DNA of 64,000 nt from a virus (lineage: Duplodnaviria; Caudoviricetes), in the IMG/VR virus record IMGVR_UViG_3300033148_005588, positions 1-64,000 of that record; one strand, 5' to 3'. Position numbers and translations under genes: made by a program. Position 1 is the stretch's first letter. The number at the start of each line of letters is the position of its first letter. Below, piece by piece: positions 5,275 through 25,995 of the stretch. The notes beneath the pieces are model-generated. The model made no database searches and was not told the DNA's origin. It worked only from the letters and a program-made list of their open reading frames with translations.

Positions 5275-8200
5275 TTAAGCAAACCCCAAGTTGTAGAGAG
5301 TCTCTGCCCACCGAGAGATGCCCTCTGAAAAGGTCTGGTAGTTTTGCGCTCTGTTGTAGATGACTGCTGCTGGATGAATACACCAAGCAATCCAGCACCC
5401 GTACTTTGGGCTCCACTCCACTGTTCCGCTCAGAGCGTTTATGCCGCTGCTCTCTTGGCGGAAAAAGTAGTTCACTGTGTTGCCAAGAGCAAGAACCAAA
5501 AATGGCTTCACAATGGACAGCTCTCTTGAGAGCCAATACTTGGAGCAAATGTCAATTTGTGATGGCTTTGGAGTCTTTGTCTCAGATGGCCAACACTTCT
5601 GTACATTGGTGATGTAGAAGTCCTTCCTAGTCAAGTTGAACTTCTTTCCTAGCTCTGTCCAAAGCACTTCCCCGCCCCCACCAACAAACCCCTCTCCGAC
5701 TCTGTCTTCTTGGCGCCCTGGAGCCTCTCCAATAATACAAGCATTCAAGTTGCCTATGCTGGGCCGAACAACTTGTGAGCACTCTTTTCTCAGGGAGCAA
5801 TGCTCACAAGCAGACATTGCCTCTCCAAGTCTTTCCAGCTCTCTTCTCTGCCTTGGGCTTAGTGTTTTAGCCAGTCTCAAGGACAGGCCCCTAGTGTTGG
5901 CAGATTCCAAATCCTCCACAAACCAAAATTCTTCCGTATGCAAGGAGCTTGTTCTGTATGGATGATTTGCTTTAGCAAGAAGCCATCTTCCGGAGCAGTG
6001 CTCAATCTCTTCTTTGCGTTCTTGGTAGACCTTGGAACCAAATACAAGCATGGCGAAATCTGTCTGATCTTCAAAGTTACCATACACTCCGCCCAGTGCT
6101 CCTTTGGTGCCCTTTATGTCTCTGGCTTTGTCCGTTATAACATTTTGAACTTTCTCTCGGTAACCAAACTTTATCTGAGTCATGCGACCAAAATACAAAG
6201 AGGACTCTCGTTCTGTTCTCAAAAAGTTCACGCTGTTCAGCGGCCTTATAGAGAGAGAAGTTTTCAGCACTCTCAGCAACTTTCTAAACCTGTACATGGG
6301 GTCGGAACTAAGCTCAAAAGAAAAATACTCACTCAATCTTTCCAGCTCTTCCTCAGAGAACTGAGGCCGATCTTCTTCTTTGAAGAACAGCGCCCCTACA
6401 GCACTCAAGGTCTTTATGACCCGTGAGTTCACGGTGCGCTTGGGCAGGCGCGATTGGAGATCGTCTAGGCTCTTGTATGCTCCGTTCTTGAGGCGCTCTT
6501 TTTCTATGGCTTTGGCTGCTGCTGGGCCAATGCCCTTTATCTCACACAAAGGGACAACCAATGCCCCCGATTTGTTTATAGCCCATTCTTCTGCCTTGCT
6601 TTCATTTACATTAGGCAAGATAAACTTTAGCCCTAGCCTTCTCAGCTCCATGATACAATCTCTTTTCTTTAGGTCTGTGCCGTAGGTGAGCACCGCAACC
6701 ATAAACTCTGCTGGGTAGTGTACCTTTAACCACATATCCCAGTAGCCAATCATGGCATACTCCACAGCATGGGATTTGTTGAATCCGTAAGAGCCAAAGT
6801 GCTTCAACTCATCAAACACCTTTTTGGCCTCGCTGGGAGGGAGCGTTTTGCGCTTTTGACACCCCTCAATGAACAAAGACTCAAACTTCTTAAACTGCTC
6901 TACACCTTTAGACTTGCTAATTACTTTGCGAACTGTGTCAGCTGTTCTCCATGGCAAACCTCCCAAATCATAGAGCAGATTCATGACTTGCTCCTGGTAG
7001 AGAATAAGACCTCTTGTGTCTTTTGTAAGCTTCTCTATGAAGGGATGGACTTTAGGTATCTCTTGCTGTCCGTGCTTGCGTAAGCGATAGTCAACAGTCA
7101 TGCCACTGCGCAAGCACCCTGGGCGGTGAAGAGCATTCAAGTCTGTTAGTTGGTTAAAGTCCTCTATGCCAATCTCCTTACAAAGTTTTATCATCCCGGG
7201 AGTGTTGAATTGGAAACATCCTATCGTATTGCCTTGGGTAAATTGGTCGTAGACCTCCTTGTCGTCAAGAGGAATTTTCTCAAAGTCTATCTCCACCCTG
7301 TGCCTTTCTTTTATCAGCTTGGCGCAGTAGTTCAATATGGTCAGAGCCTTGAGCCCCAGAACATCCAGTTTCATTAGGCCGTTAAACTCAGCATCTTCTT
7401 TGTCCCAGTTGACACAGATTGTCCCTTGTTTGCGGCGTACAAGATTAGCACACAGAGCGTCTCTTAGATCGTGTCCTGCGATACAAATGGCTGCTGCGTG
7501 CATACCTGCTCGTACCTTTTGGCCCTCCAGGGCCATCGCTATGCGGCTGACTTCTGGGTATTTCTTCTTGAATTTTATGCCATCCTCAAAAGTGTTGAAG
7601 GCGTCCTCTATTGTAAAAGAGGCTCTAACATCACCACCACTGCGCACGACGATAGACTTTGCAGCAGCGTCAACATCCTTTGGGCTTACAGAAAACACTC
7701 TGCTAACGTCTCGCAGAGCACCACGCCCATGAAGTGCTGCAAAGGTAGACACTCCCGCCACATTGTACTTACCATACAACTTCTCCAGGTGCTCCCGGAT
7801 AAGGTCTCTCTTTATGTCTTCAAAGTCCATATCAATATCTGGCAGGTCAATGCGAGCTGGGCTGATGAACCTGGCAAATAAGAGATTGTACTTTAGTGGG
7901 TTGACCTTTGTTATACCAAGCACATAGGCAAGCAAACTGCCCCCCACGCTGCCCCTACCCGGACCAGTCATTATATCATTCTCTTTACACCACCGTATGA
8001 GTTCCCAAACAATGAGAAAGTACCTGGCAAAGCCAAGTTTAATGACTAACTCTAATTCCTCCTTGAGGCGTTCCTCGTATTCTTCTATGCTGGTGCCAAT
8101 CTCCTTATGATGCTCGGCTTTTTCATACAATCCATCAAGAGCCAACTCAATAAGCTTATCTTCATCAGACAGCCCCTCTTTGCCTGGCACTGGCACATGG

Positions 8201-9069
8201 GGTAGCACAACTGGTATGCGCTCAAGGTGTAGAGTGCATTGTTCCGCCACCATTAAAGTGTTATCAAGGGCTTCCATTATCTCTTTTCTTTTTAGAACTC
8301 CCTGGGTGGTAAATGCCTCTACCATCTCCTTTCTGGTTCGGAGATAGAGTCCTGTAACATCAAACTTCCATCTGTTAGGATCATTCCACTTAGCATTCCT
8401 CTGGATGGCAAGCAAAACCTCTTGTAGCTTTTCTTGTCCTCGCTCTACATAATGGCAATCATTGGTAGCCACAATAGGCAACCCGTACTCTTTAGCAAGG
8501 CTCAAAGCAAGAGCGTTTACCTCTACTTGGTCTTTGTAGTTGTGCGGCATAACTTCCAGATAGACAGGCAAAGACTTGCCCACTAAGTCCTCTAGTAAGC
8601 CCCTGCCCCATTCTGTTTGGATAAAGGAAGAGGCACAAGCAGACATAATGATGAGGCCAGAACAGTTCTCCAAGAGCAAAGAGGGGTCTATGCGGGGTCG
8701 GTAGTAGAATCCGTGGAGATTTGCTTGGGTGAGAAGATGGAGAATACTCTTCCATCCATCTTGGTTCCTGGCTAAAAGGGTAATATGGTAGGTTCTTTCC
8801 CTTCTTTGGGTCTTGTCTCTTGGCGGTCTGTACTTGATGTCTTCCACTAAGTACATCTCACAGCCAAGAATGGAGTGTATTCCAGCCTCATCACACGCTT
8901 GCTGCCAGCGCACGCACCCGTCAACGTTCATGTGGTTGGTCAGGGCCAGGTGCTCCATACCGAGCTGTTTGGCCCTCTCCACATACTGTTGAGCTGTGCC
9001 GTACCCATCGAGCAAGCTATACTCGTTGTGGATATGCAGGTGGGCAAACTCTTCTTTACTGCTGTTCAT
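5275..9069 (-). CDS. dnaE: DNA polymerase III alpha subunit with C-terminal family-4 uracil-DNA glycosylase domain
   Basis: PHP domain (HLHIHNEYSLLDG, TNDCHY), GRGSVGGS, PDIDMDF, KLDVLGL, YGFNKSH. The C-terminus has CxxC, GEAPG, FVG, TNVQKC and HPAA UDG motifs. Confidence 0.95.
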   Translation of the reverse strand: MNSSKEEFAHLHIHNEYSLLDGYGTAQQYVERAKQLGMEHLALTNHMNVDGCVRWQQACDEAGIHSILGCEMYLVEDIKYRPPRDKTQRRERTYHITLLARNQDGWKSILHLLTQANLHGFYYRPRIDPSLLLENCSGLIIMSACASSFIQTEWGRGLLEDLVGKSLPVYLEVMPHNYKDQVEVNALALSLAKEYGLPIVATNDCHYVERGQEKLQEVLLAIQRNAKWNDPNRWKFDVTGLYLRTRKEMVEAFTTQGVLKRKEIMEALDNTLMVAEQCTLHLERIPVVLPHVPVPGKEGLSDEDKLIELALDGLYEKAEHHKEIGTSIEEYEERLKEELELVIKLGFARYFLIVWELIRWCKENDIMTGPGRGSVGGSLLAYVLGITKVNPLKYNLLFARFISPARIDLPDIDMDFEDIKRDLIREHLEKLYGKYNVAGVSTFAALHGRGALRDVSRVFSVSPKDVDAAAKSIVVRSGGDVRASFTIEDAFNTFEDGIKFKKKYPEVSRIAMALEGQKVRAGMHAAAICIAGHDLRDALCANLVRRKQGTICVNWDKEDAEFNGLMKLDVLGLKALTILNYCAKLIKERHRVEIDFEKIPLDDKEVYDQFTQGNTIGCFQFNTPGMIKLCKEIGIEDFNQLTDLNALHRPGCLRSGMTVDYRLRKHGQQEIPKVHPFIEKLTKDTRGLILYQEQVMNLLYDLGGLPWRTADTVRKVISKSKGVEQFKKFESLFIEGCQKRKTLPPSEAKKVFDELKHFGSYGFNKSHAVEYAMIGYWDMWLKVHYPAEFMVAVLTYGTDLKKRDCIMELRRLGLKFILPNVNESKAEEWAINKSGALVVPLCEIKGIGPAAAKAIEKERLKNGAYKSLDDLQSRLPKRTVNSRVIKTLSAVGALFFKEEDRPQFSEEELERLSEYFSFELSSDPMYRFRKLLRVLKTSLSIRPLNSVNFLRTERESSLYFGRMTQIKFGYREKVQNVITDKARDIKGTKGALGGVYGNFEDQTDFAMLVFGSKVYQERKEEIEHCSGRWLLAKANHPYRTSSLHTEEFWFVEDLESANTRGLSLRLAKTLSPRQRRELERLGEAMSACEHCSLRKECSQVVRPSIGNLNACIIGEAPGRQEDRVGEGFVGGGGEVLWTELGKKFNLTRKDFYITNVQKCWPSETKTPKPSQIDICSKYWLSRELSIVKPFLVLALGNTVNYFFRQESSGINALSGTVEWSPKYGCWIAWCIHPAAVIYNRAQNYQTFSEGISRWAETLYNLGFA

Positions 9070-9802
9070 GGGGCTTTGCCTCTCTTTCTCTCTTCCAGTG
9101 TGGCTTAAAAGACAGTACCCTCTCTACATACTCATCTGTCCATCTACCGCCAAAGCCAATAGCTCTGTCATCAATGTAAACATCAGCCAGCACCTTTGTG
9201 CCAGAGAGTTGCTGCTCTTGGTTTGCTGGATTGTAGTTTATATAGTCAAAGGGTAAGTGGTGCTCTTGTAAATACTTTCTAACCTCATTAATCTCCGACC
9301 TTGTCGTGTTGATGATTATAAGCGCCCCCTCTTTGCGAAATCTCTCTAAAGCTTCTTTGACTCCGGGAACAGGAGGCCCAAAAACACCTTTGCCCTTCCA
9401 CCCTGTGTATATGGCTATGGTAGCATCAAAGTCTATTGCTATTGTTTTTCTCTCTTTCTTAGAGGAGAGAGGCTTCTCGCATTGGTTTGTTCTTCTGTAT
9501 TCCATAAGCATCAGCAAACAATACGCAGCAAAGTCAAGAAGAGTGTCTTCAACAGACTCTGTTGCTTGGCCCAAATCGGCCCCAGGTTCAGAGTCCCAAA
9601 ACCAGCGTTTGAGTCTCTGGTATTTGCGGTTTATGTCTACAAAGATGCCCTTGATGCCTAAGCTGTTGTAGGCTGTTTCTCCGTACCGTTTGGTGCCTGA
9701 TTTCTTTTTCTCATGAACCTCCTTCAGCAAAGAGGCAAAAGCCGCATCGTGAGCAGAATCAGAGCAAAGTTTTGTCTCAAACTTATTGAGTTCTTTGTCC
9801 AT
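9056..9802 (-). CDS. DUF1599/Nmad1-like all-alpha domain fused to HAD-family phosphatase
   Basis: N-terminal K..RYG..RKYQRL..ESVEDTLLDFAAY; C-terminal DFDATI (HAD motif I) and YIDDRA; start reassigned to MDKEL (SD AGGAG). Confidence 0.65.
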   Translation of the reverse strand: MDKELNKFETKLCSDSAHDAAFASLLKEVHEKKKSGTKRYGETAYNSLGIKGIFVDINRKYQRLKRWFWDSEPGADLGQATESVEDTLLDFAAYCLLMLMEYRRTNQCEKPLSSKKERKTIAIDFDATIAIYTGWKGKGVFGPPVPGVKEALERFRKEGALIIINTTRSEINEVRKYLQEHHLPFDYINYNPANQEQQLSGTKVLADVYIDDRAIGFGGRWTDEYVERVLSFKPHWKREREAKPHEQQ

Positions 9803-10725: not shown

Positions 10726-11511
10726 CTATTTCTCCTCTGTCTCTATCAGGTTTGTCCACCTTTCCACAAGGTATTTTTCTTTATCTTTGTCTGGCACACC
10801 CCCCTTTCCAACAAGGTGAGTAGAGAACTCGGGATCGTTGAAGATAGGACAACGCTGTGCCTTCGTAGGGAAGCGGCATCTCCAATAACGCAAGCAGAAG
10901 GGTCTCAGCACCTGCTCAAAGCGGGGGTGTGCCTTCAGCACCTCTTTACGCATGTCTCTAGCCACATTTCTGAACTCACCTTGTACTCGATAACACAAGC
11001 GAATTTCCAGAAGAGTAGACAAGGAGCGCAGGTTACAAGAAACCAGTATGTTTGTTAGAATGTTGGTAGGCAGAATCCCTCTAGCATCTTCTGGCTCTAT
11101 GCTCATCTTTAACAAGCGAGAATACGCCTGCTTAATATGCTCAAGAACCTCAACAACCTCTTCAAAGGCTGGCTGATCAAAAAGAATATTCTCAGGGAAA
11201 TAGTAATCAAAATCTTCTACAGCAACAGTGCGCATTGACTGCTGCGCAAAACTAAACCCTACTCTGTGACGTACTAACTGGTGAGTAAAGGCTCTGGAAA
11301 CTCCTTCTAAGAAGAATATGTATTGCACAAATTCCCAGGCAGAACTTATAGTCGCAAAGGCTTGTTCAAGCTCTTTCTGTATCTCCTCTTTGCTCATGGC
11401 CAGTATCTCTCCAAGGCGATCTAGTGCTGATGTGTTGAGTAGCCTTGTTTGCTTTGCTAGTACAAGCATCCTCTCTGCATTTAGTGTCCAATTAACTAAG
11501 GTGACTTTCAT
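10726..11511 (-). CDS. thyX: flavin-dependent thymidylate synthase (ThyX family)
   Basis: SRAFTHQLVRHRVGFSFAQQSMR (RHRx7S-type motif), EDARGILP, NLRSL..R. Confidence 0.9.
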   Translation of the reverse strand: MKVTLVNWTLNAERMLVLAKQTRLLNTSALDRLGEILAMSKEEIQKELEQAFATISSAWEFVQYIFFLEGVSRAFTHQLVRHRVGFSFAQQSMRTVAVEDFDYYFPENILFDQPAFEEVVEVLEHIKQAYSRLLKMSIEPEDARGILPTNILTNILVSCNLRSLSTLLEIRLCYRVQGEFRNVARDMRKEVLKAHPRFEQVLRPFCLRYWRCRFPTKAQRCPIFNDPEFSTHLVGKGGVPDKDKEKYLVERWTNLIETEEK

Positions 11512-13327: not shown

Positions 13328-13903
13328 TCACAAAAGTTCCTGATACCTTTTGCGCAGTTTGCGCATTGTGGTAGCACCAAAATGCTCCTCTAGCACCTTC
13401 AAAGGTGTCTTTAAGCGCAAGCTCTTGTCGGAAGCCCTCCCAGTGCGCCTATAGAAAACAGCCCTAGAGTGACGTCTGAACTTAAAGAGAAGTTCATTGG
13501 GCACTCCATCCAGAATAAGAGAAACAAACTCTTTGCTGATCTCTGCCAAACCGGCAATAACCTCAGCAAGCAGAACCTCTCTCTCTGGTGTTCTGTGGCA
13601 GGCTGCAGGAAAGGCCCCCTCTGCTGTGTCCTCTATAAAGGCAGAAGGCGACCTGTACTCTTTGCGGAGAAGGTTGCTGAAGTGCTGTTCAACACAATTC
13701 CAAATGTAGGTTATAAGCTTAACACTACACTTTGGATTATATGTTCTGAGAGCCTTCAAAACAGCAATTCTACCTTCTTGCCTTAGCACCTCCATTGAGT
13801 GGTACTCGCTGCGCTCAGGCAACCTAGCATAATACTTTTTGGCTATTTTGACAACTAAGCCTTCATAATCTCCCCATGCAGGTATTGCTTTCTCTTTTCC
13901 CAT
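13328..13903 (-). CDS. sigma70-family region-2 protein (phage sigma-like factor)
   Basis: YEGLVVKIAKKY..LRQEGRIAVLKALRTYNP..KLITYIWNCV matches the sigma region 2 pattern. Confidence 0.75.
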   Translation of the reverse strand: MGKEKAIPAWGDYEGLVVKIAKKYYARLPERSEYHSMEVLRQEGRIAVLKALRTYNPKCSVKLITYIWNCVEQHFSNLLRKEYRSPSAFIEDTAEGAFPAACHRTPEREVLLAEVIAGLAEISKEFVSLILDGVPNELLFKFRRHSRAVFYRRTGRASDKSLRLKTPLKVLEEHFGATTMRKLRKRYQELL

Positions 13904-13920: not shown

Positions 13921-14823
13921 TTAGAAGTCTATTTTTCTACGGAGTCGGACATCAGCAATCTTGCTGAAGTCACCAATTATTGACTCCATCTTCTTTCCTA
14001 TCAAGGAGCGAAAGTCATCATCATAGCGCAGCTCTTCAGCACCAATTCCATCCAAGGCATCTTTACATTCTTCCACGAGGGAAGAAAGTTTTTGGTACCC
14101 TAGAAAGCCATCCCAAGAGGAACTAAAATCATCCAGAAACTGCTTCAAAGAATTAACAGTGGCAGTGTTGATTTTGTCCCTGGAGCATTGCTCTTTCAAG
14201 CTTTCTATCTTGGACAGGAATTTCTGTGCAATGGTGCTTATGGCAACATCACGCATGCGCCTTGCCTCAGCTTGAATCTTTCTAACCTCTTCCTCATAGA
14301 CTTCCGGAGGAAGAACTTCAAGACTGCGATCAGGCGCCACAAAGTGTCTAAAGTACCACTCGAACCTAAAGATTCTCCTCATCACATCTTGAGAGGGATA
14401 CTTCTCCGGTCTGTAAAGATGAGGATACTTCTTTTGGAAATCCCTCTTGTCAGCCTCGTAACCGGAGAGGAACTGTTCCACCTTGGATAAAAATTCCTCT
14501 CTGCGCCTTCTCAAGCCTTCATCCACAATGGTGATGTTTTGCTTAAGAATGAAGACCAAGCCATCAACAGGAAAGGGCAGGCTGTACCTGGCCACAAACC
14601 GCTTGGCCTCTGAGCGCATCTCATGAAGCTGGCGCAAGTAGGTTTTGTCAGTGAGCAGGTCATACACTGCCCGGACAATTTCCACAGGCATTTGCTCGCT
14701 GAAGAAGTTTTCATCCAGCTTTGACCTTGCTCCCCAGCAACGTATCTTCAAGTGGACAAGGCAGCCCTTGGAGAACACGCTGCTGGCATCAACAGTTTTC
14801 TCTCTCTTTACTCTTTCTACCAT
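13921..14823 (-). CDS. DUF3150-like protein
   Basis: Start at 14823 directly after repeat A; L.I..WG..KL, YSLPF..G..F pattern; next to AAA/DUF1257/DUF2997 genes. Confidence 0.55.
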   Translation of the reverse strand: MVERVKREKTVDASSVFSKGCLVHLKIRCWGARSKLDENFFSEQMPVEIVRAVYDLLTDKTYLRQLHEMRSEAKRFVARYSLPFPVDGLVFILKQNITIVDEGLRRRREEFLSKVEQFLSGYEADKRDFQKKYPHLYRPEKYPSQDVMRRIFRFEWYFRHFVAPDRSLEVLPPEVYEEEVRKIQAEARRMRDVAISTIAQKFLSKIESLKEQCSRDKINTATVNSLKQFLDDFSSSWDGFLGYQKLSSLVEECKDALDGIGAEELRYDDDFRSLIGKKMESIIGDFSKIADVRLRRKIDF

Positions 14824-14921
14824 CTCTCTATATCCTCCTTGTTTTTGAATTTGGAATAGTGATTGACTACTCCATAGAGCATACCACCAAGAGTGGTGAT
14901 ATGCTCTAGCAGGAGTCAATC
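14821..14921 (-). repeat. hairpin+RBS intergenic cassette, copy A (divergent)
   Basis: Outer stem GATTGACT/AGTCAATC, loop variant CAAGA, SD AAGGAGGA before the ATG at 14823. Confidence 0.92.
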
Positions 14922-14925
14922 GTGC

Positions 14926-15093
14926 TTAGTCCTTTGAAGCTTGCTGCGAGAAAGACAGCAGCAGTTGCTGTACGCAGTAGCTGCACAGTACAAGTTTTGA
15001 AGCTGTGTGTATGGTTTTTCTACCGCTTGGATTATAGGATACCTCTTGTCTTCCACACCTTGGGCATCCATTTCTCTTTACTCTTTCCGCCAT
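14926..15093 (-). CDS. small zinc-finger protein (55 aa)
   Basis: Manual translation MAERVKRNGCPRCGRQEVSYNPSGRKTIHTASKLVLCSYCVQQLLLSFSQQASKD; CxxC..CxxC; exactly fills the space between repeats B and A. Confidence 0.75.
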   Translation of the reverse strand: MAERVKRNGCPRCGRQEVSYNPSGRKTIHTASKLVLCSYCVQQLLLSFSQQASKD

Positions 15094-15201
15094 CTCTTCT
15101 TATTAGTCCTCCTTGTTTTTGGATTAGGAGCAGCAGAATTAACCACTCCATTGAGCACACCACCACCACGCTGTGGTGATATGCTCTAGCAGAGGTTAAT
15201 C
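15091..15201 (-). repeat. hairpin+RBS cassette, copy B
   Basis: Near-identical to copies C, D and G. Confidence 0.95.
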
Positions 15202-15206
15202 TCCCT

Positions 15207-16634
15207 CTAGGCATCAAGTTTGAGCTTGCGCACCTTGCGTCTCTTACCTTTGAGAGAAAAATTACTGGCAGGTATGGCCCGACCATTAGCCCAATCTCTG
15301 AGTGCATCAATCTCCTCACTCATAGTTTTTGCCAAAGGCAAAACAAACCGTGCTGCTTGCCGGACTGACTCTTTTCTTCTGGAAGCAATACGACAGCAAG
15401 CCTCTATCTCAGCACCAGTCCAGGAGTCTGTATTTGGAAGATCGTCAATCTTCACAGAGTGCTTACCTGCCCAATAGGCCCAAATCTGGGCCTTTTCTTC
15501 CTCATTGGGCAAGTCAATGAAGAAGGGAGCGGTGTCCCAACGACCAGCCCTCAGGTATTCTGGTGGTATGCCTCTAAAGGAATTTGCTGTTGCTACAATG
15601 TACAAGTCTTTTGGCCTATTCTTGGCTTCTAAAAACTCCAGCCATTTGCCTGTGGCTCTTCTAGTTGTGCCGCTGTCCAAAGAACCATCGCCGGAGGCTC
15701 CAGCAAATTGCTTCTCAAACTCATCAATTATTAAAATACATTCTCCAACAGCAAACAGCAAGCTTTGGATCTCCCTAATGTTCTGGTCAGTCTCCCCCTG
15801 GTATTTGGAGAAAAGCCTACCGACGTCAAGCTTGAGAGTCAGCCGGCCAGTTTGCCCAGCAAGGCAATAGGCAAAGAGAGTCTTGCCGCAGCCTGGTGGG
15901 CCAACAACCATAACACCAAGGTCTCCCTGCCTCAGAGGCAGGACAAAGTCTTTGATGTTCTCATAGCCCTTAATGTCATCAAAGGTAAGGTCTGTCTTTA
16001 CCACTTCTATGATGCCTTTGCGCTCAATAGCCATAGCCTTGTGAGCATTAAGATAATCTCTGTTAAAACCATGAGATTTTATAACACTCAGTGCCAAGGC
16101 ATTTTCCACCTCAAGAGCAGTCAAGCCCTTAGCAGCAGACACCAGCTTTGCCATCTCTTCTCCCTCTGGCACCTTGACTCTGCCCTCTGTGCTCTCAGAA
16201 ACAAACTCCATTGTGGAGATTATTTCCTGGTCATCAGGCAAGGGCATCTCCAAGAGCTGTGTGTCTTTTTCCAGCTCTGTCGGTATCTCTGCCTTAGCAG
16301 AGATGATAACAGCAGCTTTGCCTTCAGACTTCCACAGCTCCACCCGATTCTGGACAGCCTGAATAAGTTGTGGCTTATTCAAGAACCACCCAAAGTTAGA
16401 CAGCACAAGAACTGTGTACGGAGAAGCTTTGTCCAAAAGGCCCAGAGCCTGGTCTGGGGGGAGACCCATAGTACAATCCCACTCTATAAGCTCGTACCTG
16501 CCCCCGTCTTTTCTCTCTGCCTTCTCAAGCAGAGAAGAGAGCAGTCGTTTGGCTCGGCGCAGCTCATCGGTTTGGAGCCAAAATAGGCTGTAGCCTGCCC
16601 TCAAATAGTCTACAATCTCTACCATCTTTTCCAT
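15207..16634 (-). CDS. AAA+ ATPase (Ycf46-like)
   Basis: GPPGCGKT Walker A, ILIIDEFEK Walker B, ATAN, PPEYLRAGRWD, WTGAEIE. Confidence 0.9.
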   Translation of the reverse strand: MEKMVEIVDYLRAGYSLFWLQTDELRRAKRLLSSLLEKAERKDGGRYELIEWDCTMGLPPDQALGLLDKASPYTVLVLSNFGWFLNKPQLIQAVQNRVELWKSEGKAAVIISAKAEIPTELEKDTQLLEMPLPDDQEIISTMEFVSESTEGRVKVPEGEEMAKLVSAAKGLTALEVENALALSVIKSHGFNRDYLNAHKAMAIERKGIIEVVKTDLTFDDIKGYENIKDFVLPLRQGDLGVMVVGPPGCGKTLFAYCLAGQTGRLTLKLDVGRLFSKYQGETDQNIREIQSLLFAVGECILIIDEFEKQFAGASGDGSLDSGTTRRATGKWLEFLEAKNRPKDLYIVATANSFRGIPPEYLRAGRWDTAPFFIDLPNEEEKAQIWAYWAGKHSVKIDDLPNTDSWTGAEIEACCRIASRRKESVRQAARFVLPLAKTMSEEIDALRDWANGRAIPASNFSLKGKRRKVRKLKLDA

Positions 16635-16739
16635 CTCTTCTTAGTCCTCCTTGTTTTTGGATTAGGAGCAGCAGGATTAACCACTCCATTGAGCACACCA
16701 CCACCACGCTGTGGTGATATGCTCTAGCAGAGGTTAATC
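16632..16739 (-). repeat. hairpin+RBS cassette, copy C
   Basis: 65-nt hairpin at 16675-16739 containing the upstream stop codon; SD and ATG at 16634. Confidence 0.95.
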
Positions 16740-16958
16740 AGCGTGGTTCTTCTTTATAGCAATCACAACTTCAACAGCCTTGCCCAATCGGTTAGCTTTT
16801 GCCCATTGTGGCCCGCAGTGCTCATCAGCCTCTTTGGCTTTCTTAATTGCCAGTTCAGGCAAACAAGCAATTGTCTCTATGTCTATGTAAGCATATCCAT
16901 CGGTAGAGTATCTCACAACTGCCCAAGAAGTTTGCTCTTTAATTTGCTCATTATGCAT
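16734..16958 (-). CDS. hypothetical protein
   Basis: Bounded by repeats D and C. Confidence 0.7.
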   Translation of the reverse strand: MHNEQIKEQTSWAVVRYSTDGYAYIDIETIACLPELAIKKAKEADEHCGPQWAKANRLGKAVEVVIAIKKNHAD

Positions 16959-17060
16959 TCTTTAGTCCTCCTTGTTTTTGGATTAGGAGCAGCAGAATTA
17001 ACCACTCCATAGAGCACACCACCACCACGCTGTGGTGATATGCTCTAGCAGAGGTTAATC
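16956..17060 (-). repeat. hairpin+RBS cassette, copy D
   Basis: As above; TAGAGCA/TGCTCTA pairs perfectly in this copy. Confidence 0.95.
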
Positions 17061-17435
17061 AGCGTAGTCCAAAATAACCTCAACATCACCATTATCCAAA
17101 TCATTCACCCAGTAAGAGTAAACGTCTGGATTCTGGTTGGCTTCAGCCACTACCACTGCTTTTGAATAGGCTTGTAACAACCTTCCAAGGTTATCCATAG
17201 AACCAACCTCAGAACCCCAGTTGTCATACCATAGCTTTCCCTCTTTGTCAATAGCCAGAGAGTATCTCCAACCCTTAATCTCCAGTTTAGCTACAGCTTC
17301 CACGCTCTGATGCCCAAACATCCGGACAGTTTGCTTACCAATATCCAACTGCCCAAGCCCTGTAAGATTGGCAACAGCACTGAGAGTATTTAAGTTTGTG
17401 ATCTTTACTGAAGAGTATACTGATGTGTGACTCAT
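17055..17435 (-). CDS. DUF1257 (Ycf35-like) protein
   Basis: MSHTS..KITNLNTL N-terminus, wyDNWG, L.QAYS; adjacent to DUF2997-like and AAA genes. Confidence 0.7.
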   Translation of the reverse strand: MSHTSVYSSVKITNLNTLSAVANLTGLGQLDIGKQTVRMFGHQSVEAVAKLEIKGWRYSLAIDKEGKLWYDNWGSEVGSMDNLGRLLQAYSKAVVVAEANQNPDVYSYWVNDLDNGDVEVILDYAD

Positions 17436-17454
17436 TGTCTAAACCTCCTCTCTT

Positions 17455-17661
17455 TTAGCCACAATGGCCTTCTGGCAGGCCATCTCTGGTGCATACAGAG
17501 TCGTCCGCCTCATAGTATTCTTCTTTCAATTCTGTCCTCGCAGGAGGGCCAAGCACTTTGTTCAGGAACGCCGTGCGCTCAAAGCACTTACTTCCTTTGT
17601 CGCCCTCAACATCAGTGTGGACAGACCCATTAGGCTTTAAAATAATTCTCACTCTTGGCAT
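17455..17661 (-). CDS. DUF2997-like protein
   Basis: I.LKPNGSV..DVEGDKG.KC..T..L..LG..ELK.EYY pattern. Confidence 0.75.
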   Translation of the reverse strand: MPRVRIILKPNGSVHTDVEGDKGSKCFERTAFLNKVLGPPARTELKEEYYEADDSVCTRDGLPEGHCG

Positions 17662-17679
17662 TTTGGTAGACCTCCTCTT

Positions 17680-17886
17680 TTAAGTGGTTTCTTCTTCTCC
17701 GCAAATTGGACACTTCTTTCCCAAAGGGATAGGTGTCCCACAACACCACCATACTTCCTCGTGTGGAGTACAAGCAGAGCACCGCTTTGTAGTAAAGCGG
17801 AGAAAGCTACAAGTTTGCTCCTGAGAGCATTTGCAGCATTGATCCAAATACCTTATAAAAACTTTTCTCTTGCTCATTTTGTACAC
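17680..17886 (-). CDS. small Cys-rich protein
   Basis: Multiple CxxC motifs; co-oriented. Confidence 0.5.
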   Translation of the reverse strand: MYKMSKRKVFIRYLDQCCKCSQEQTCSFLRFTTKRCSACTPHEEVWWCCGTPIPLGKKCPICGEEETT

Positions 17887-18212
17887 CGCCCATTAGCAAG
17901 TACTGTCACAAAAATCTCCAACCCGTACAGCTCCCTAGGCACAGGCCCCTTAATAATGAAGCCTGGAGAGCAACCACAGGCACAGCCAGCAGTTTGGCTC
18001 CAAGAGGAAGTGAATTGAGACAAGCAAGGATAGCCTGCCTTTGTGAAAACTGCTGGTAACACTTTTCTGTATTGATTGTACGGCCTAGACCACCTATTGA
18101 TTAGGTTTTCTATAGCATCTTCCTCGTCCACAAAGAAGTAAACCCTGGGCCTAGCAAAGCTGTCCTTTCTTTGCGACACACTCACACTTTTGATTTCTAC
18201 CATCTTTTCCAT
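17874..18212 (-). CDS. hypothetical protein
   Basis: Starts at the repeat E RBS; TAGCACGCSPGF motif. Confidence 0.75.
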   Translation of the reverse strand: MEKMVEIKSVSVSQRKDSFARPRVYFFVDEEDAIENLINRWSRPYNQYRKVLPAVFTKAGYPCLSQFTSSWSQTAGCACGCSPGFIIKGPVPRELYGLEIFVTVLANGRCTK

Positions 18213-18316
18213 CTCTTCTTAGTCCTCCTTGTTTTTGGATTAGGAGCAGCAGGATTAACCACTCCATTGAGCACACCACCACCAAGAGTGGTGATATGCT
18301 CTAGCAGAGGTTAATC
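18210..18316 (-). repeat. hairpin+RBS cassette, copy E
   Basis: Loop variant CAAGA as in copy A, stems as in copy C. Confidence 0.95.
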
Positions 18317-18482
18317 AAAGCTCTTTGTCTATGTGCTTGCGCACCAGTTCATAAAGTTCCTCAGCGTCTACTCCAAAAACTTTTGCGTAGTCTGAGGACG
18401 CATTCTCGGCGGAAGTGATTCCGCTCTTCACAGTGGAGAAAACTTCCTTGACCATCCATCCCTCAATCTTCTTTTTCCCCAT
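18315..18482 (-). CDS. hypothetical protein (55 aa)
   Basis: Start reassigned to MGKKKIEG after AAGGAGG; stop overlaps repeat E. Confidence 0.6.
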   Translation of the reverse strand: MGKKKIEGWMVKEVFSTVKSGITSAENASSDYAKVFGVDAEELYELVRKHIDKEL

Positions 18483-18654
18483 GAGTAAATCCTCCTTTTC
18501 TCTTAATCCTGAAAATTGGTGGTTTACCATTAAAATTTTCCTCCAAAAAAAGCCTGTATCTCTTACACTTGCGTGAGCAATTACAGTAACAGGCTTTCCA
18601 GTGGACGAACCTACTGAAGTTCCCACCAACATAACAGGGAACATAGTTACCCAT
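18463..18654 (-). CDS. small Cys-rich hypothetical protein
   Basis: MGNYVPCY start after AAGGAG; CYCNCSRKC. Confidence 0.4.
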   Translation of the reverse strand: MGNYVPCYVGGNFSRFVHWKACYCNCSRKCKRYRLFLEENFNGKPPIFRIKRKGGFTHGEKED

Positions 18655-18676
18655 TTGTCTCTCTTCTCCTTTCCGC

Positions 18677-18901
18677 TTATCCTGGATAATCAAACGCACA
18701 AGCGTGCTCTTCTCCCTCCAAGAGTAACCGCTTGATCAGTGGCTTGTGACTTGGATTGAACTGATCTAAGTCATAGGCCAGACCGCTGCCATCGGTGGCA
18801 ATGTACCTGCCTTCCCGGACAGGCAGGTCCCAAAAGGCAAACCCTACATGAGCACCAAAGCTCAGGCAAAACCTCTTAGGCTTTCTGCGTACTCTTTCCA
18901 T
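18677..18901 (-). CDS. hypothetical protein
   Basis: Co-oriented ORF coupled to its neighbours. Confidence 0.5.
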   Translation of the reverse strand: MERVRRKPKRFCLSFGAHVGFAFWDLPVREGRYIATDGSGLAYDLDQFNPSHKPLIKRLLLEGEEHACAFDYPG

Positions 18902-19295
18902 TTTTCTTGGCTCCTCTCTTTTCCCAAGTCAAGACCTCTTTTGTGATGATGGTACAGTGCTCATCAATCCACATAGAGCCCAGCTTCTTGCGGATCAGCT
19001 CCACACTGGGATTTGATATCTCTATGTAGGTCTGCTCTCCCACATCAGCAATAATGTCTTCTTTTGGAGGCAGCTGAGCCGTTTGCCTCTCTTTCTTTGT
19101 GAAAGCCCTGTTGCCATAGGGAACTGAGTCACCAGCATACATCAGCCGCCCCAGGCGCTCTCTCACCCTGGCAACTTCTTCTTTAGCTTTCTCCAGAAGA
19201 GACTCTTTTTTATCCAGCTCCTTAACAAGCTTAGTCAAGAGCTCCTCTCTCTTAGCCACGGTTCTCCGGGAGACAATTCTTTTCTTCTTTTCCAT
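18876..19295 (-). CDS. hypothetical coiled-coil protein
   Basis: True start at the repeat F RBS (MEKKKR). Confidence 0.7.
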   Translation of the reverse strand: MEKKKRIVSRRTVAKREELLTKLVKELDKKESLLEKAKEEVARVRERLGRLMYAGDSVPYGNRAFTKKERQTAQLPPKEDIIADVGEQTYIEISNPSVELIRKKLGSMWIDEHCTIITKEVLTWEKRGAKKNGKSTQKA

Positions 19296-19396
19296 CTCTC
19301 TATATCCTCCTTGTTTTTGGATTTGGAGCAGCAGAATTAACCACTCCATTGAGCATACCACCCTGCTGTGGTGATATGCTCTAGCAGAGGTTAATC
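19293..19396 (-). repeat. hairpin+RBS cassette, copy F
   Basis: Loop variant CCTGCT; SD spacer identical to copy A. Confidence 0.95.
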
Positions 19397-19399
19397 AGC

Positions 19400-19708
19400 T
19401 TAAACTTCTACATCAAGACCCAAGCGCCTTTTCTGCCCCTCTTCATTTTTCTGGTAGACAGACAAAACAAGATCACCATCACTATTAAAGATAATATTCC
19501 ACCCTCTGCCTTTAATCTCTTTAAGGTATCCGTCCAAAGTTGCGCTCACTCCTTGGTCAGCTAAACTATCCACAACAGCATCCAGATCGCATTTTGGGCC
19601 AGACCACCATGATCTTGTCACACCTCTCTGGCGCTCATAGCTTTCTTTGATGAAACCTATACATTCCAAAGCCTCAGACACTTTTCTATATGGTGTTACT
19701 CTACCCAT
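19400..19708 (-). CDS. hypothetical protein
   Basis: Bounded by repeats G and F. Confidence 0.75.
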   Translation of the reverse strand: MGRVTPYRKVSEALECIGFIKESYERQRGVTRSWWSGPKCDLDAVVDSLADQGVSATLDGYLKEIKGRGWNIIFNSDGDLVLSVYQKNEEGQKRRLGLDVEV

Positions 19709-19813
19709 CTCTTCTTAGTCCTCCTTGTTTTTGGATTAGGAGCAGCAGAATTAACCACTCCATTGAGCACACCACCACCACGCTGTGGTGATATGCTCTA
19801 GCAGAGGTTAATC
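19706..19813 (-). repeat. hairpin+RBS cassette, copy G
   Basis: Near-identical to copies B and C. Confidence 0.95.
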
Positions 19814-20024
19814 AAATCTTGCAGACCTTGTAGGTGAAACGAGTTGGACTAAAGGGACTGTTCATTCTTTTGGTAAGTCTGGCTGCCTCTTTCTCAGCCT
19901 CTTCCTTATCCTCAGTTTCATAGATTTCGTCGTCTCTTTTAAGCCACGCCTCTGCATAGCCCATAAGACCGCCGCTTCTTATAGCTCTTATACGATACAT
20001 AGCATCTCTTCTCCTTTCTATCAT
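19812..20024 (-). CDS. hypothetical protein
   Basis: Stop overlaps repeat G. Confidence 0.6.
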   Translation of the reverse strand: MIERRRDAMYRIRAIRSGGLMGYAEAWLKRDDEIYETEDKEEAEKEAARLTKRMNSPFSPTRFTYKVCKI

Positions 20025-20215
20025 CGGACCTCTACATACTTCATAGTAACCTGCAATAAATGGTCATAGTTGCCACCAAAAGCTTCTTCTGTATACTTCT
20101 TTGCCAATTCTTGGTGCCCTGCTCTTTTAAGAGCCTTTTGCACTTTGGCCAAGATAAAAAAGGCATTACCATCTTCTCCTGTCAGTTTTACTTTCACATT
20201 TGTCAACGGTTCCAT
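20021..20215 (-). CDS. small conserved phage hypothetical protein
   Basis: VKLTGEDGNAFFILAKV..ALKRAG..YDHLL pattern; starts at the RBS-only repeat copy H. Confidence 0.75.
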   Translation of the reverse strand: MEPLTNVKVKLTGEDGNAFFILAKVQKALKRAGHQELAKKYTEEAFGGNYDHLLQVTMKYVEVR

Positions 20216-20246
20216 CTCTTCTTAGTCCTCCTTGTTTTTGGATTTG
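20213..20246 (-). repeat. partial cassette copy H (RBS part only)
   Basis: Matches the RBS portion of the repeat but lacks the hairpin. Confidence 0.9.
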
Positions 20247-20249
20247 GAA

Positions 20250-20925
20250 AGTTTTGAACCCTCCATAGTGTCCCCAAGCAAGCAGCAAGGCTCACTCAGG
20301 AGCACTAGCAAAGCTCAAAACAAGGAGGAGGACATAAGAGATTTTCATCACACCACAGAATGGCCTCACCTACGACCGCTTTCCCCTGGGGCCGTAACTT
20401 GCCCGTTTCCCTCAACTTACTCCCGCAGTTTCAGTGTCTACTCTTAACCAGGTGCGTGGCACCGGCACGAGCAAGTCCTAAGCTGCTTCAGTTACTCACA
20501 GCCCTCAATGTTTCTGTGGTCGGTTTACAGTTTCTCAGGACTTAGCACCAGCCACACCATCAAAAGGATGTGGCTACGGGTTGTCCACCTTCTGCCTGCC
20601 CCGCCTATTACGATAGGAGATATTTGGCTTGACCAGGATACCTGTTTATGGATTGGCTAAAATCCCTCGATATGTTAAAAAGAGAAGAAGTCCTATCTGT
20701 CTTTCCCTCTATCTCTTACTGAATTGCCCCTCTTATCAAGGTCAGGTTTAACGTGGTAGGCTTAACCAGTACTGTCGAGAAATAATCTCTCTACCCTTCC
20801 ATAGTTAAGCACAAGGCCTCAGCACCATCAGCATTTTCTTCCTCCCCAGGCCAAGGGATTGGTTTTTTAAGGATTTAACCTCTTTTTAAGAAGGCCATCC
20901 AGTTTCTCAAAGAGCTATAATAATT
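20250..20925 (-). ncRNA. candidate long structured leader / ncRNA
   Basis: No credible ORF downstream of promoter P4; many complementary segments (see findings). Family not recognised. Confidence 0.4.
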
Positions 20926-20931
20926 ATAGTT

Positions 20932-20953
20932 ATTATAAGGCAAAAGTAAAGAA
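20932..20953 (-). promoter_or_regulatory. phage-type promoter P4 (variant)
   Basis: TTCTT-TAC-TTTTGC-CT-TATAAT, 2 mismatches to consensus, with long A/T tracts upstream. Confidence 0.6.
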
Positions 20954-21206
20954 AAAAAATAACATTTTTAGAAAAAAATATATTAACGATTTCAATAAGT
21001 TATAAAAAAAAATTAGGTTTAAACGCACTAGAACCTGTTTCTTAATAACCTATTGAATTCATTAAGGAAATTAGATTCTGGCATTATGTTAACTCATTGA
21101 TTTTACTAAGGTTTAATAGAAGACTCCAAAAACAAGAGAAGCTAGGTTAAAGTGCTGAGATTACTTGATATTCTTTTGAGGAAACGTAACCTACTGGAAT
21201 TATTAT

Positions 21207-21229
21207 AATAGCCGTGATTCGGCTATTTT
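21207..21229. terminator. hairpin after primase (possible terminator)
   Basis: AATAGCCG-TGATT-CGGCTATT 8-bp stem; the T-tract is short and on the plus strand only. Confidence 0.35.
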
Positions 21230-21301
21230 AGTCCTAACCTCCCCTCCCCTTTCTCTTCTTAAAAAAGCCTAAGAGCATCACGAAACGGGCGTCAGGCACG
21301 C

Positions 21302-22267
21302 TCATTCTACATACCTTACAGCATGCTTTTTCTCCACTAGGAGAAACCTTTGCTTGCCCAAAGAGGCAACATCCTGCTCGGGGGGCAGCTTAACCACAGT
21401 TATGTCTTCAAAGAAGGCACTCATCTCACTAGCAATATCCATAGCCCTAACATAAGCATCACCATCAAGAGCTATGCGGAGGCTGCTCACTCCCTCATAA
21501 GCAGCCAAGTGGCTCAAAAGCCCCACCTGCCACCGACTGATCTTATTTGTAAACAAGGCTAAAGTGCAATCATCATCCAGAGCCCAAACGTCAGTTACTC
21601 CCTCTACCACTCTCACAAACCCATGAGAGCTGTCAAAGAAGTCCCATGCGTAGAGGCATTGCCTGGGACTCTTCTTGCTCTCACTAATGGGGCAATTCAA
21701 GTACCTAAGCTCACTCTGCCCAAGGTAGTCTCTGCCAAGGTAAGTGACTAGCTCTCCTTCATAGTACACAGGCACAATAATGCGGCCTGTGTATTTGCCT
21801 GATGGGCAAAAACAAAGACCATACTTCTCTGCAAGATGCGCAGGGTCAAAGCCCCTAGAAGAGAGATAGGATGAAGCCTTGCGCTTGTGAGCTTTGAAGT
21901 ATGTTTTGCTGTGGAAGGTTTCTGCCTCTTCTGGTAGGGAGACTTTTCTTCTTGGTTTGACTAGGGGCGGGGCGTCTGGCTCTGGGAGCCCCACCTCGTC
22001 ACTGAACTCTTTGGCGATGGCTTTTGCCTCCCGGAAAGAGCAGCCCTCTATGGTCATAATTAAGTCATACAGGGACGGGCGCCGATCAAGATGGGCAAAA
22101 TTACAAAGCCAGCAATTGAGCAAGCCCTTGCTCTTGTGGATGCCTAAGTGCTTTCTTGTCTCTCCGCAAAAAGGGCAGTCGATGTTCACATCGTTTGAGC
22201 CGACATTGTCCCCTGACTCTCTGTAGTCAATACCCCGTGAGTCTAAATACCCAATTACATCAAACAC
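21302..22267 (-). CDS. DNA primase (Zn-finger + Toprim)
   Basis: CPFC..H..NCWLC zinc finger, GRIIVP, VVEGVTD, ALDGDA Toprim motifs. Confidence 0.9.
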   Translation of the reverse strand: MFDVIGYLDSRGIDYRESGDNVGSNDVNIDCPFCGETRKHLGIHKSKGLLNCWLCNFAHLDRRPSLYDLIMTIEGCSFREAKAIAKEFSDEVGLPEPDAPPLVKPRRKVSLPEEAETFHSKTYFKAHKRKASSYLSSRGFDPAHLAEKYGLCFCPSGKYTGRIIVPVYYEGELVTYLGRDYLGQSELRYLNCPISESKKSPRQCLYAWDFFDSSHGFVRVVEGVTDVWALDDDCTLALFTNKISRWQVGLLSHLAAYEGVSSLRIALDGDAYVRAMDIASEMSAFFEDITVVKLPPEQDVASLGKQRFLLVEKKHAVRYVE

Positions 22268-25850: not shown

Positions 25851-25869
25851 AGCCTCCTCTCTCTCTATT

Positions 25870-25990
25870 AACAAAACGAATAGGAGAGAGGGGAGGAGAC
25901 AGGAACAAGGAGGAAGTCCTGTCTGTACTATTTTTGTGGTCTTACCACAACTCTCCCCTTTACTCTCCTATTCTCTCTCCCACCGAGCTG
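25870..25990 (-). ncRNA. candidate sRNA: three-way junction with anti-SD loop and U-rich 3' end
   Basis: Promoter P3 immediately upstream. Stems: 25878-88/25963-73 (11 bp), 25889-95/25953-59 (7 bp), 25897-904/25917-24 (8 bp), 25934-40/25944-50 (7 bp). Followed by GUUUUGUU. Confidence 0.6.
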
Positions 25991-25995
25991 CTTAT

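Follow-up and report, generated by a model that had tools for sequence, protein, structure and literature searches.

Hairpin and ribosome-binding-site units border gene cassettes in a hydrothermal-vent phage at junctions where related phages carry self-cleaving ribozymes

The intercistronic RNase III processing signals of phages T7 and T3, comprising R0.3–R1.3 and the late sites, were reportedly set out by Dunn and Studier in 1983. In prophages, clustered hammerhead ribozymes flank single genes or short gene blocks and cleave in vitro (Perreault et al. 2011, PMC3088659); their suggested role is to divide long phage transcripts into mRNAs of gene length (PMC3088659). The PeSL cassettes of T4-type phages combine an early sigma-70 promoter with a terminator stem-loop (Arbiol et al. 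2010, PMC2839356; Comeau et al. 2014, PMC4122927). Here we describe an array of repeated units of ~105 nucleotides (nt), each joining a long hairpin to a ribosome-binding site (RBS), in the phage recorded in IMG/VR as IMGVR_UViG_3300033148_005588. The stretch analysed, referred to below as the window, is the first 64 kb of this complete 82,832-bp genome, which has direct terminal repeats. The phage is uncultured and has been detected in hydrothermal-vent metagenomes only.

The array is composed of eight units, named c1 to c8 (Table 1), in a region where all genes lie on the minus strand, as do nearly all long open reading frames (ORFs) of the window. Seven near-identical full copies, at the positions given in the original prediction, were confirmed by repeat finding, pattern searches and alignment. 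The core of the leader and Shine–Dalgarno (SD) sequence has eight matches in the window (0.00 expected by chance), and the hairpin core has seven (0.04 expected). The hairpin-core total for the whole 82,832-bp genome is also seven, none of them beyond the array, and no further unit copies are present genome-wide. The eighth unit, c8, had been taken for an ‘RBS-only’ copy at 20213–20246. This assignment was wrong: c8 is a full, diverged unit that matches across the entire unit model and has a covarying hairpin of its own. The units had also been said to fill the intergenic spaces exactly. They fill seven of ~15 gene junctions, so the units bound modules of one to four genes and not every gene. 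The exact hairpin core had no match in an IMG/VR search, nor did blastn find a match among 50,697 phage records. Strong matches to the unit model (R1) came from strains of this phage only, with a weak match in L021, the closest relative.

In mRNA sense, each unit runs from stop codons through the hairpin, a short C/U-rich segment, an A-rich leader and a strong SD to the ATG of the next gene. Five of the seven full window units (c3–c7) contain UGA, UAA and UAG in three different frames within the first 17 nt, as does an additional unit found in the strain contig L023. Stop codons overlap the start of the hairpin as originally described, with the stop of the upstream gene actually inside the hairpin base in four of the seven units. 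The hairpin is imperfect and interrupted, with 23–30 pairs arranged as an 8-bp lower stem, a conserved interrupted middle and a 12–16-bp upper stem that ends in a variable loop. The conserved middle, which is kept in the units and in unit B of L021, has two mismatches (U-U or C-U, and G-G) and an asymmetric 2/3-nt loop; in c1 and c4 the internal loop is fully paired. The repeat reaches, in several units, into the first three to seven codons of the next gene. The shared coding starts noted earlier are present, MEKMVEI at 16634 and 18212 and M-x-ERVKR at 14823 and 15093. The first seven codons of g14 are a copy of those of the DUF3150 gene, to which they are native, because the L021 ortholog of the DUF3150 gene also has them.

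Covariation and strand preference both identify the hairpin as an RNA structure. The window hairpins fold at −39 to −47 kcal/mol (z −4.5 to −6.6). Covariation was assessed in an alignment of 17 distinct unit variants, taken from the window, from three strain contigs and from L021. Of its cells, 96.7% are paired, and compensatory double changes occur in 14 of the 27 pairs; c1 has two compensatory pairs in its lower stem. Control shuffles yielded 5.5 ± 1.5 compensatory pairs, with none of 500 reaching 14, and slid registers yielded 2–5. The mRNA sense is more stable than the antisense in all 16 hairpins tested, by 1.4–17.5 kcal/mol overall and by 7–17 kcal/mol for the window’s own units, because G-U pairs become A-C on the opposite strand. 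In this strand comparison the sense folds at −30 to −39 kcal/mol and the antisense at −20 to −30 kcal/mol; for the diverged c8 hairpin, whose lower stem covaries, the values are −37.5 and −20.0 kcal/mol. Together, the covariation and the better folding of the sense strand indicate that the structure is selected in the transcript. Even in L021, where the AAA ATPase is 57% identical to that of the window, the AUGGAG of the 3′ arm and a central U-CU-G-C / G-G-AG-U motif are invariant, and both flanking stems covary.

Relatives of the phage were found as syntenic loci via the AAA ATPase in IMG/VR, JGI metagenomes and other assemblies. In phages whose ATPase is 40–50% identical, the same kind of junction has type II hammerheads that score in Rfam, or pistol-like motifs. 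Matches to Hammerhead_II above the gathering score number 37 in nine IMG/VR loci, 3 in L019 and 12 in four metagenome loci, all on the coding strand. A hammerhead lies directly upstream of the ATPase ortholog in at least 11 loci; it typically follows the upstream stop immediately and leaves ~30 nt to the ATPase start. Locus L015 contains four repeated intergenic pistol-like units (Table 1) with sub-threshold scores of 21.5–29 bits (gathering score 34.5). They may be a pistol variant serving as a gene-junction device. The syntenic array of a hammerhead-bearing relative, L014, contains ~30 tandem copies of a 9-nt unit at 1629–1907.

The DNA comparison of the closest lineages covered L021, L018 and L022. 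The ATPases of L018 and L022 are 54 and 52% identical to that of the window. In these three loci the Rfam search gave no ribozyme match, and at the junctions a long interrupted hairpin precedes an A-rich leader and SD. The L018 repeats (7867–7938 and 8985–9056) form a GC-rich UUCG hairpin plus a second hairpin, and those of L022 (252–295, ~1060–1100 and 2107–2150) have a conserved internal loop and a covarying apex; neither set matches Rfam. The shape of the units recurs in a third L021 hairpin and in those of L022 and L018, with a different sequence and no AUGGAG; it is therefore shape, not sequence, that is common to the clade. The ATPase tree groups the hairpin-type loci (window, L021, L018 and L022) in one clade (support 100/100) that is nested among hammerhead bearers, and the hammerhead-bearing L019 is among the nearest lineages outside it. 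Because hammerheads are found on both sides of the midpoint root of this tree, replacement of hammerheads by hairpins would be the simplest history.

The hairpin units and the ribozymes are thus equivalent in position, and a role of the units in RNA processing gains strong indirect support because related phages carry type II hammerheads at the same junctions. The array resembles the prophage hammerhead arrays (RF02276) in genomic slot, orientation, module size and proposed role. Unlike those arrays, the window units do not contain the hammerhead core; cutting would need a host enzyme in trans.

The unit borders are also sites of gene turnover. The L023 contig, from another vent sample, is 97–98% identical to the window over 20672–15830. 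Between the leader RBS and g1, it contains an extra cassette composed of a 115-aa ORF and a full unit, the latter with three A-U to G-C compensatory pairs. In place of g3, it contains an unrelated 103-aa ORF (BLASTP E = 0.93) between the same two flanking units. Neither of these L023-specific ORFs was found anywhere in the complete genome of this phage. The g1–g2 module is just 89% identical to L023, compared with 97–98% in the flanks, which indicates that the array is mosaic. Units also convert one another, as seen in three strains: in L017, the loop and SD spacer of c2 carry the spacer form of c1 and c6, with 1.8 kb nearby 100% identical; three L023 units are identical over 109 nt; and the c1 unit of L026 joins a c1-type 5′ arm to a c2-type 3′ arm, the two still pairing through G-U. 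The gene pair formed by DUF2997 and a ~126-aa partner lies downstream of the AAA ATPase in L019 (11543–12163) and in contigs of the close relatives P0004 and P0010 but upstream of it in this phage (17055–17661), L018 and L022, a case of module transposition inside the array.

The extra cassette, the replacement of g3 and the unit conversion bear out the original description of a gene-cassette array spread by recombination. Cassette turnover by homologous exchange between units was observed directly and holds under any reading of the mechanism discussed below. In this respect the units behave like the PeSL repeats, which are likewise short conserved stem-loops between small non-essential ORFs: in the comparison of L023 with the window, the repeats border indels and replacements between close relatives that arise via homologous recombination. 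Unlike PeSL cassettes, the units have no promoter and no terminator stem-loop and carry an RBS module instead.

Logan contigs from four vent metagenomes contain three further joints at unit borders (15096|16958, 19285 to 18203 and 20209 to 18207). Although consistent with such turnover, these were not counted as evidence because shared stretches of at least 31 nt and the identical units of L023-type strains make de Bruijn chimeras possible. In a contig from run X3, module 3 leads from its end back to its start (1083-nt joint), as an excised mini-circle might, but this is likely an assembly artefact given the identical units in that strain type. Two small deletions were noted in L017, whose 5.3-kb contig is otherwise almost identical: one of 50 bp (18539–18588) eliminates the g6 ORF, and one of 19 bp (15246–15264) affects the AAA ATPase gene near its 3′ end and is accompanied by a compensating 2-bp insertion nearby.

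A second fold of the unit is conserved in addition to the long hairpin. The 3′-arm segment around AUGGAG can alternatively pair with the C/U-rich segment directly after the hairpin, forming a 6–9-bp hairpin at −8 to −12 kcal/mol in all 12 units tested, c8 and both L021 units included. This alternative hairpin has covarying extensions and a loop of variable length. Its C/U-rich segment is also complementary to the SD, and minimum free energy (MFE) folds pair CUCCU with the SD, giving a four-segment arrangement of 5′ arm, 3′ arm, anti-SD (CUGCUCC) and SD. The second hairpin would gain the advantage once the long hairpin is cut or a terminating ribosome melts its 5′ arm. Involvement of AUGGAG in both folds may account for its invariance. 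The computed probability that the SD is unpaired is 0.23–0.60 in the full unit versus 0.42–0.72 with the 5′ arm melted. A switch that unmasks the SD was rejected on this calculation, in which the effect is weak, small and inconsistent.

The exact reverse complement of the shared RBS core occurs at just two sites in the window. The site at 20317–20329 sits in the array’s own leader, where the MFE fold pairs it with the SD of c8. The site at 25905–25914 lies in the loop of a ~120-nt non-coding hairpin element (~25868–25992, minus strand) that folds at −51 kcal/mol (z −4.2) and is preceded by a promoter-like site. Judging from this complementarity, a single antisense RNA could control all eight standardised RBSs.

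The absence of promoters from the units, stated in the original prediction, was confirmed by a promoter scan that found no sigma-70-like promoter inside any of them. A terminator scan found no intrinsic terminator inside the units, and no U-tract follows the hairpin. Interpretation as a promoter was rejected on the negative scan and on the 8–16 nt spacing between AUGGAG and the next conserved block, which is too variable for −35 and −10 elements; interpretation as a terminator was rejected because the hairpin lacks a following U-tract. An attC site was rejected because no integrase is present, the core is not conserved and the sense strand folds best. The search for a tyrosine recombinase (PF00589) found none in the complete genome, while control genomes were all positive. 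Across 14500–21400, no Rfam family reached its gathering score and no ribozyme appeared at E ≤ 10. The only matches at E ≤ 10 were generic microRNA-precursor hairpins (mir-876-like, 22–30 bits versus a gathering score of 88). The type II hammerhead core (RF02276; CUGANGA ... GAAA ... UH with three stems) is absent from the window units, while the same searches gave 52 matches in relatives. Other self-cleaving ribozymes of Rfam (twister, twister-sister, pistol, hatchet, hairpin and HDV-like) had no match to the units. Because the defining features tested for are lacking, the units are not members of the hammerhead, PeSL or attC families.

Promoter-like sites are found only upstream of the array, at 20923–20950 and 20977–21006, in a non-coding leader of ~1 kb. 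The ORF-free region between the primase gene and the first unit (20330–21300) has counterparts of comparable size at the same place in L018 (4978–6172) and L019 (6973–7923). Possible identities are a large structured leader RNA and an origin region.

The original prediction named the T7 RNase III sites and the PeSL cassettes as precedents, and both comparisons held up. Like the T7/T3 signals, the units are repeats of similar, imperfect hairpins that span roughly two helical turns and have an internal loop, placed between cistrons just upstream of the next RBS. Each forms an imperfect double-stranded RNA hairpin of at least ~20 bp in the sense strand, with mid-stem mismatches or an internal loop that are predicted to direct single-strand cleavage. 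The units may also lie inside a polycistronic transcript, as T7 signals do: the array genes are co-oriented, and the units contain neither promoter nor terminator. The expected products are also alike, an upstream message with a 3′ hairpin and a downstream message with a trimmed leader, here from predicted cleavage. Unlike the T7/T3 signals, the phage units are far more uniform, include the whole leader, the SD and first codons, and carry three-frame stops and a conserved alternative 3′ hairpin. They also differ in having ribozyme counterparts in sister phages and in forming active recombination borders.

By analogy with these systems, we favour, with moderate confidence, the proposal that the units are intercistronic processing and stability modules in which a host RNase III-type nuclease cuts the hairpin, in place of self-cleaving ribozymes. 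The units would be portable RNA modules on one long minus-strand transcript of the accessory-gene region. Each would close the upstream reading frame, fold the mRNA into an interrupted hairpin of 25–27 bp and provide the next gene with a standard A-rich leader and strong SD. A host double-strand-specific endoribonuclease of the RNase III type would then cut the long hairpin, so that a 3′ hairpin would protect the upstream message and the downstream message would carry a 5′ hairpin together with a free leader and the SD. With the 5′ arm removed or melted, the 3′ arm would refold with the downstream ...YUCC segment to give this small 5′-proximal hairpin. In RNase III substrates, mismatches and internal loops favour single-strand cuts that leave stabilising 3′ hairpins (PMC3867540). 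The layout of the products would mirror the yield of a type II hammerhead, the same job being done in cis by a hammerhead or pistol-like motif at the junctions of sister phages. Here we infer the cleavage, the identity of the nuclease and the continuity of a single transcript. The units form direct repeats of ~105 nt, nearly identical and extending into first codons, and this lets gene modules be added, deleted, replaced and reshuffled by homologous recombination and gene conversion from unit to unit.

Some observations weigh against this proposal. The phage genome contains no RNase III gene. The invariance of AUGGAG and of the central motif exceeds the need of a generic double-stranded RNA nuclease site; a specific protein, a catalytic core or the pairing of the AUGGAG segment in both folds could be the reason instead. 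An uncut hairpin could, moreover, equally stabilise and insulate the cistrons. We consider it unlikely, on the whole, that the units act in this uncut form, as an intercistronic barrier to 3′ exonucleases and a folding insulator, perhaps with a function as a translational-coupling switch. In the coupling version, a ribosome terminating in the hairpin base may melt the 5′ arm, the 3′ arm then re-pairing with the ...YUCC anti-SD and freeing the SD. The stop codons in the hairpin base of four of the seven units fit this version, as do the four-segment arrangement, the alternative hairpin of all 12 units tested and the MFE pairing of CUCCU with the SD, but the predicted change in SD accessibility is small and inconsistent, and the self-cleaving RNAs at the same junctions in sister phages argue that cutting is the selected function. 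Those same RNAs raise the idea, which we find improbable, that the clade swapped its hammerheads for a new class of self-cleaving ribozyme or a self-processing conformational switch. The central motif and AUGGAG would then be the catalytic core, with AUGGAG toggling between the long and the downstream hairpins. The pistol, hatchet and twister-sister classes were discovered through genomic association of this kind. The unit occupies the slot of the hammerhead or pistol-like ribozymes of relatives, its central motif is invariant while the flanking stems covary, and two mutually exclusive folds are conserved. The hairpin is, however, a plain, near-continuous duplex without a junction or pseudoknot, its internal loop is fully paired in c1 and c4, hairpins of the same shape in L021 (the third), L022 and L018 lack AUGGAG, and no ribozyme family matches even at E ≤ 10.

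Least probable, in our view, is an element that acts in DNA or at transcription, either an attC-like or other site-specific recombination site or a PeSL-like terminator and promoter cassette, with the RNA hairpin incidental. Like integron attC sites, the units are imperfect hairpin repeats that end promoterless cassettes on their 3′ side, all in one orientation. In c2–c7, the lower stem partly resembles attC core sites, matching the core boxes at 6 of 7 positions of the consensus. Cassettes move at unit borders, which the Logan contigs, possibly artefactual, join in non-reference order. These likenesses are set against a genome without a tyrosine recombinase, loss of the GTT core (R″/R′) in c1, c8 and L021, and better folding of the mRNA-sense strand. 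The phage repeat also extends, unlike attC, through the RBS and start codon of the next gene. As a transcription element, the unit would have neither a sigma-70 promoter nor a U-tract terminator, and the only two conserved blocks fit for −35 and −10 elements are those of variable spacing. Plain homology of ~100 nt is enough to explain the exchanges, and the mosaics in c1 of L026 and c2 of L017 point to crossovers spread along the unit rather than to a specific site.

The units and the gene modules between them are listed in Table 1. Searches of PHROGs and Pfam gave no function for most of the cassette ORFs, nor for the two L023-specific ORFs. The AAA+ ATPase gene is kept in all relatives.

Table 1. 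Units, gene modules and neighbouring genes of the array, in 5′-to-3′ order of the minus strand, with the pistol-like units of L015 (positions in the window unless another locus is named)
Feature	Position	Strand	Description
Unit c8	20213..20322	−	First of array; diverged hairpin ~20251–20322, leader, SD, ATG of g1; 48.9 bits (full unit model)
Module 1	19812..20215	−	g1 (64 aa, phrog_1933) and g2 (62 aa)
Unit c7	19706..19813	−	Hairpin 19749–19813, leader/SD, ATG of g3; g2 UGA stop in hairpin base
Module 2	19400..19708	−	g3 (102 aa, ORFan)
Unit c6	19293..19396	−	Hairpin 19335–19396, leader/SD, ATG of g4
Module 3	18315..19295	−	g4 (139 aa), g5 (74 aa), g6 (63 aa), g7 (55 aa)
Unit c5	18210..18316	−	Hairpin 18253–18316, leader/SD, ATG of g8; g7 UGA stop in hairpin base
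Module 4	17055..18212	−	g8 (112 aa), g9 (65 aa), g10 (68 aa, DUF2997), g11 (126 aa)
Unit c4	16956..17060	−	Hairpin 16996–17060, leader/SD, ATG of g12; g11 UAA stop in hairpin base
Module 5	16734..16958	−	g12 (74 aa, ORFan)
Unit c3	16632..16739	−	Hairpin 16675–16739, leader/SD, ATG of AAA ATPase gene; g12 UAA stop in hairpin base
Module 6	15207..16634	−	g13, AAA+ ATPase (475 aa); phylogenetic marker here
Unit c2	15091..15201	−	Hairpin 15137–15201, leader/SD, ATG of g14
Module 7	14926..15093	−	g14 (55 aa)
Unit c1	14821..14921	−	Hairpin 14858–14921, leader/SD, ATG of DUF3150 gene; most diverged of the seven full units; 93.8 bits
g15	13921..14823	−	300 aa, DUF3150; first gene past last unit (eighth module)
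Sigma-like gene	13328–13903	−	Comes after g15
L015 pistol-like units	6797–6846, 7870–7922, 9407–9463, 11424–11486 (in L015)		Conserved linker and G-U site, P1 shortened

Three aspects of the array appear to be new: the swap of junction devices within one phage lineage, the plug-and-play design of the unit and the conservation of two alternative folds. Our literature search found no paper that describes a swap of hairpins for hammerheads. The role of many phage hammerheads and other small ribozymes is still largely inferred. Here, one lineage has three interchangeable devices at orthologous borders, the type II hammerhead, the pistol-like motif and the plain long hairpin, a pattern that would be expected if all of them cut a long message and protect the ends of its pieces. 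The lineage therefore offers a simple comparative test system for junction devices. The plug-and-play cassette, with its three-frame stops, hairpin, standard leader and SD, and shared first codons, lets phages gain, lose and replace ORFan genes. In this design, the unit is the translation-level counterpart of the promoter-based PeSL cassettes.

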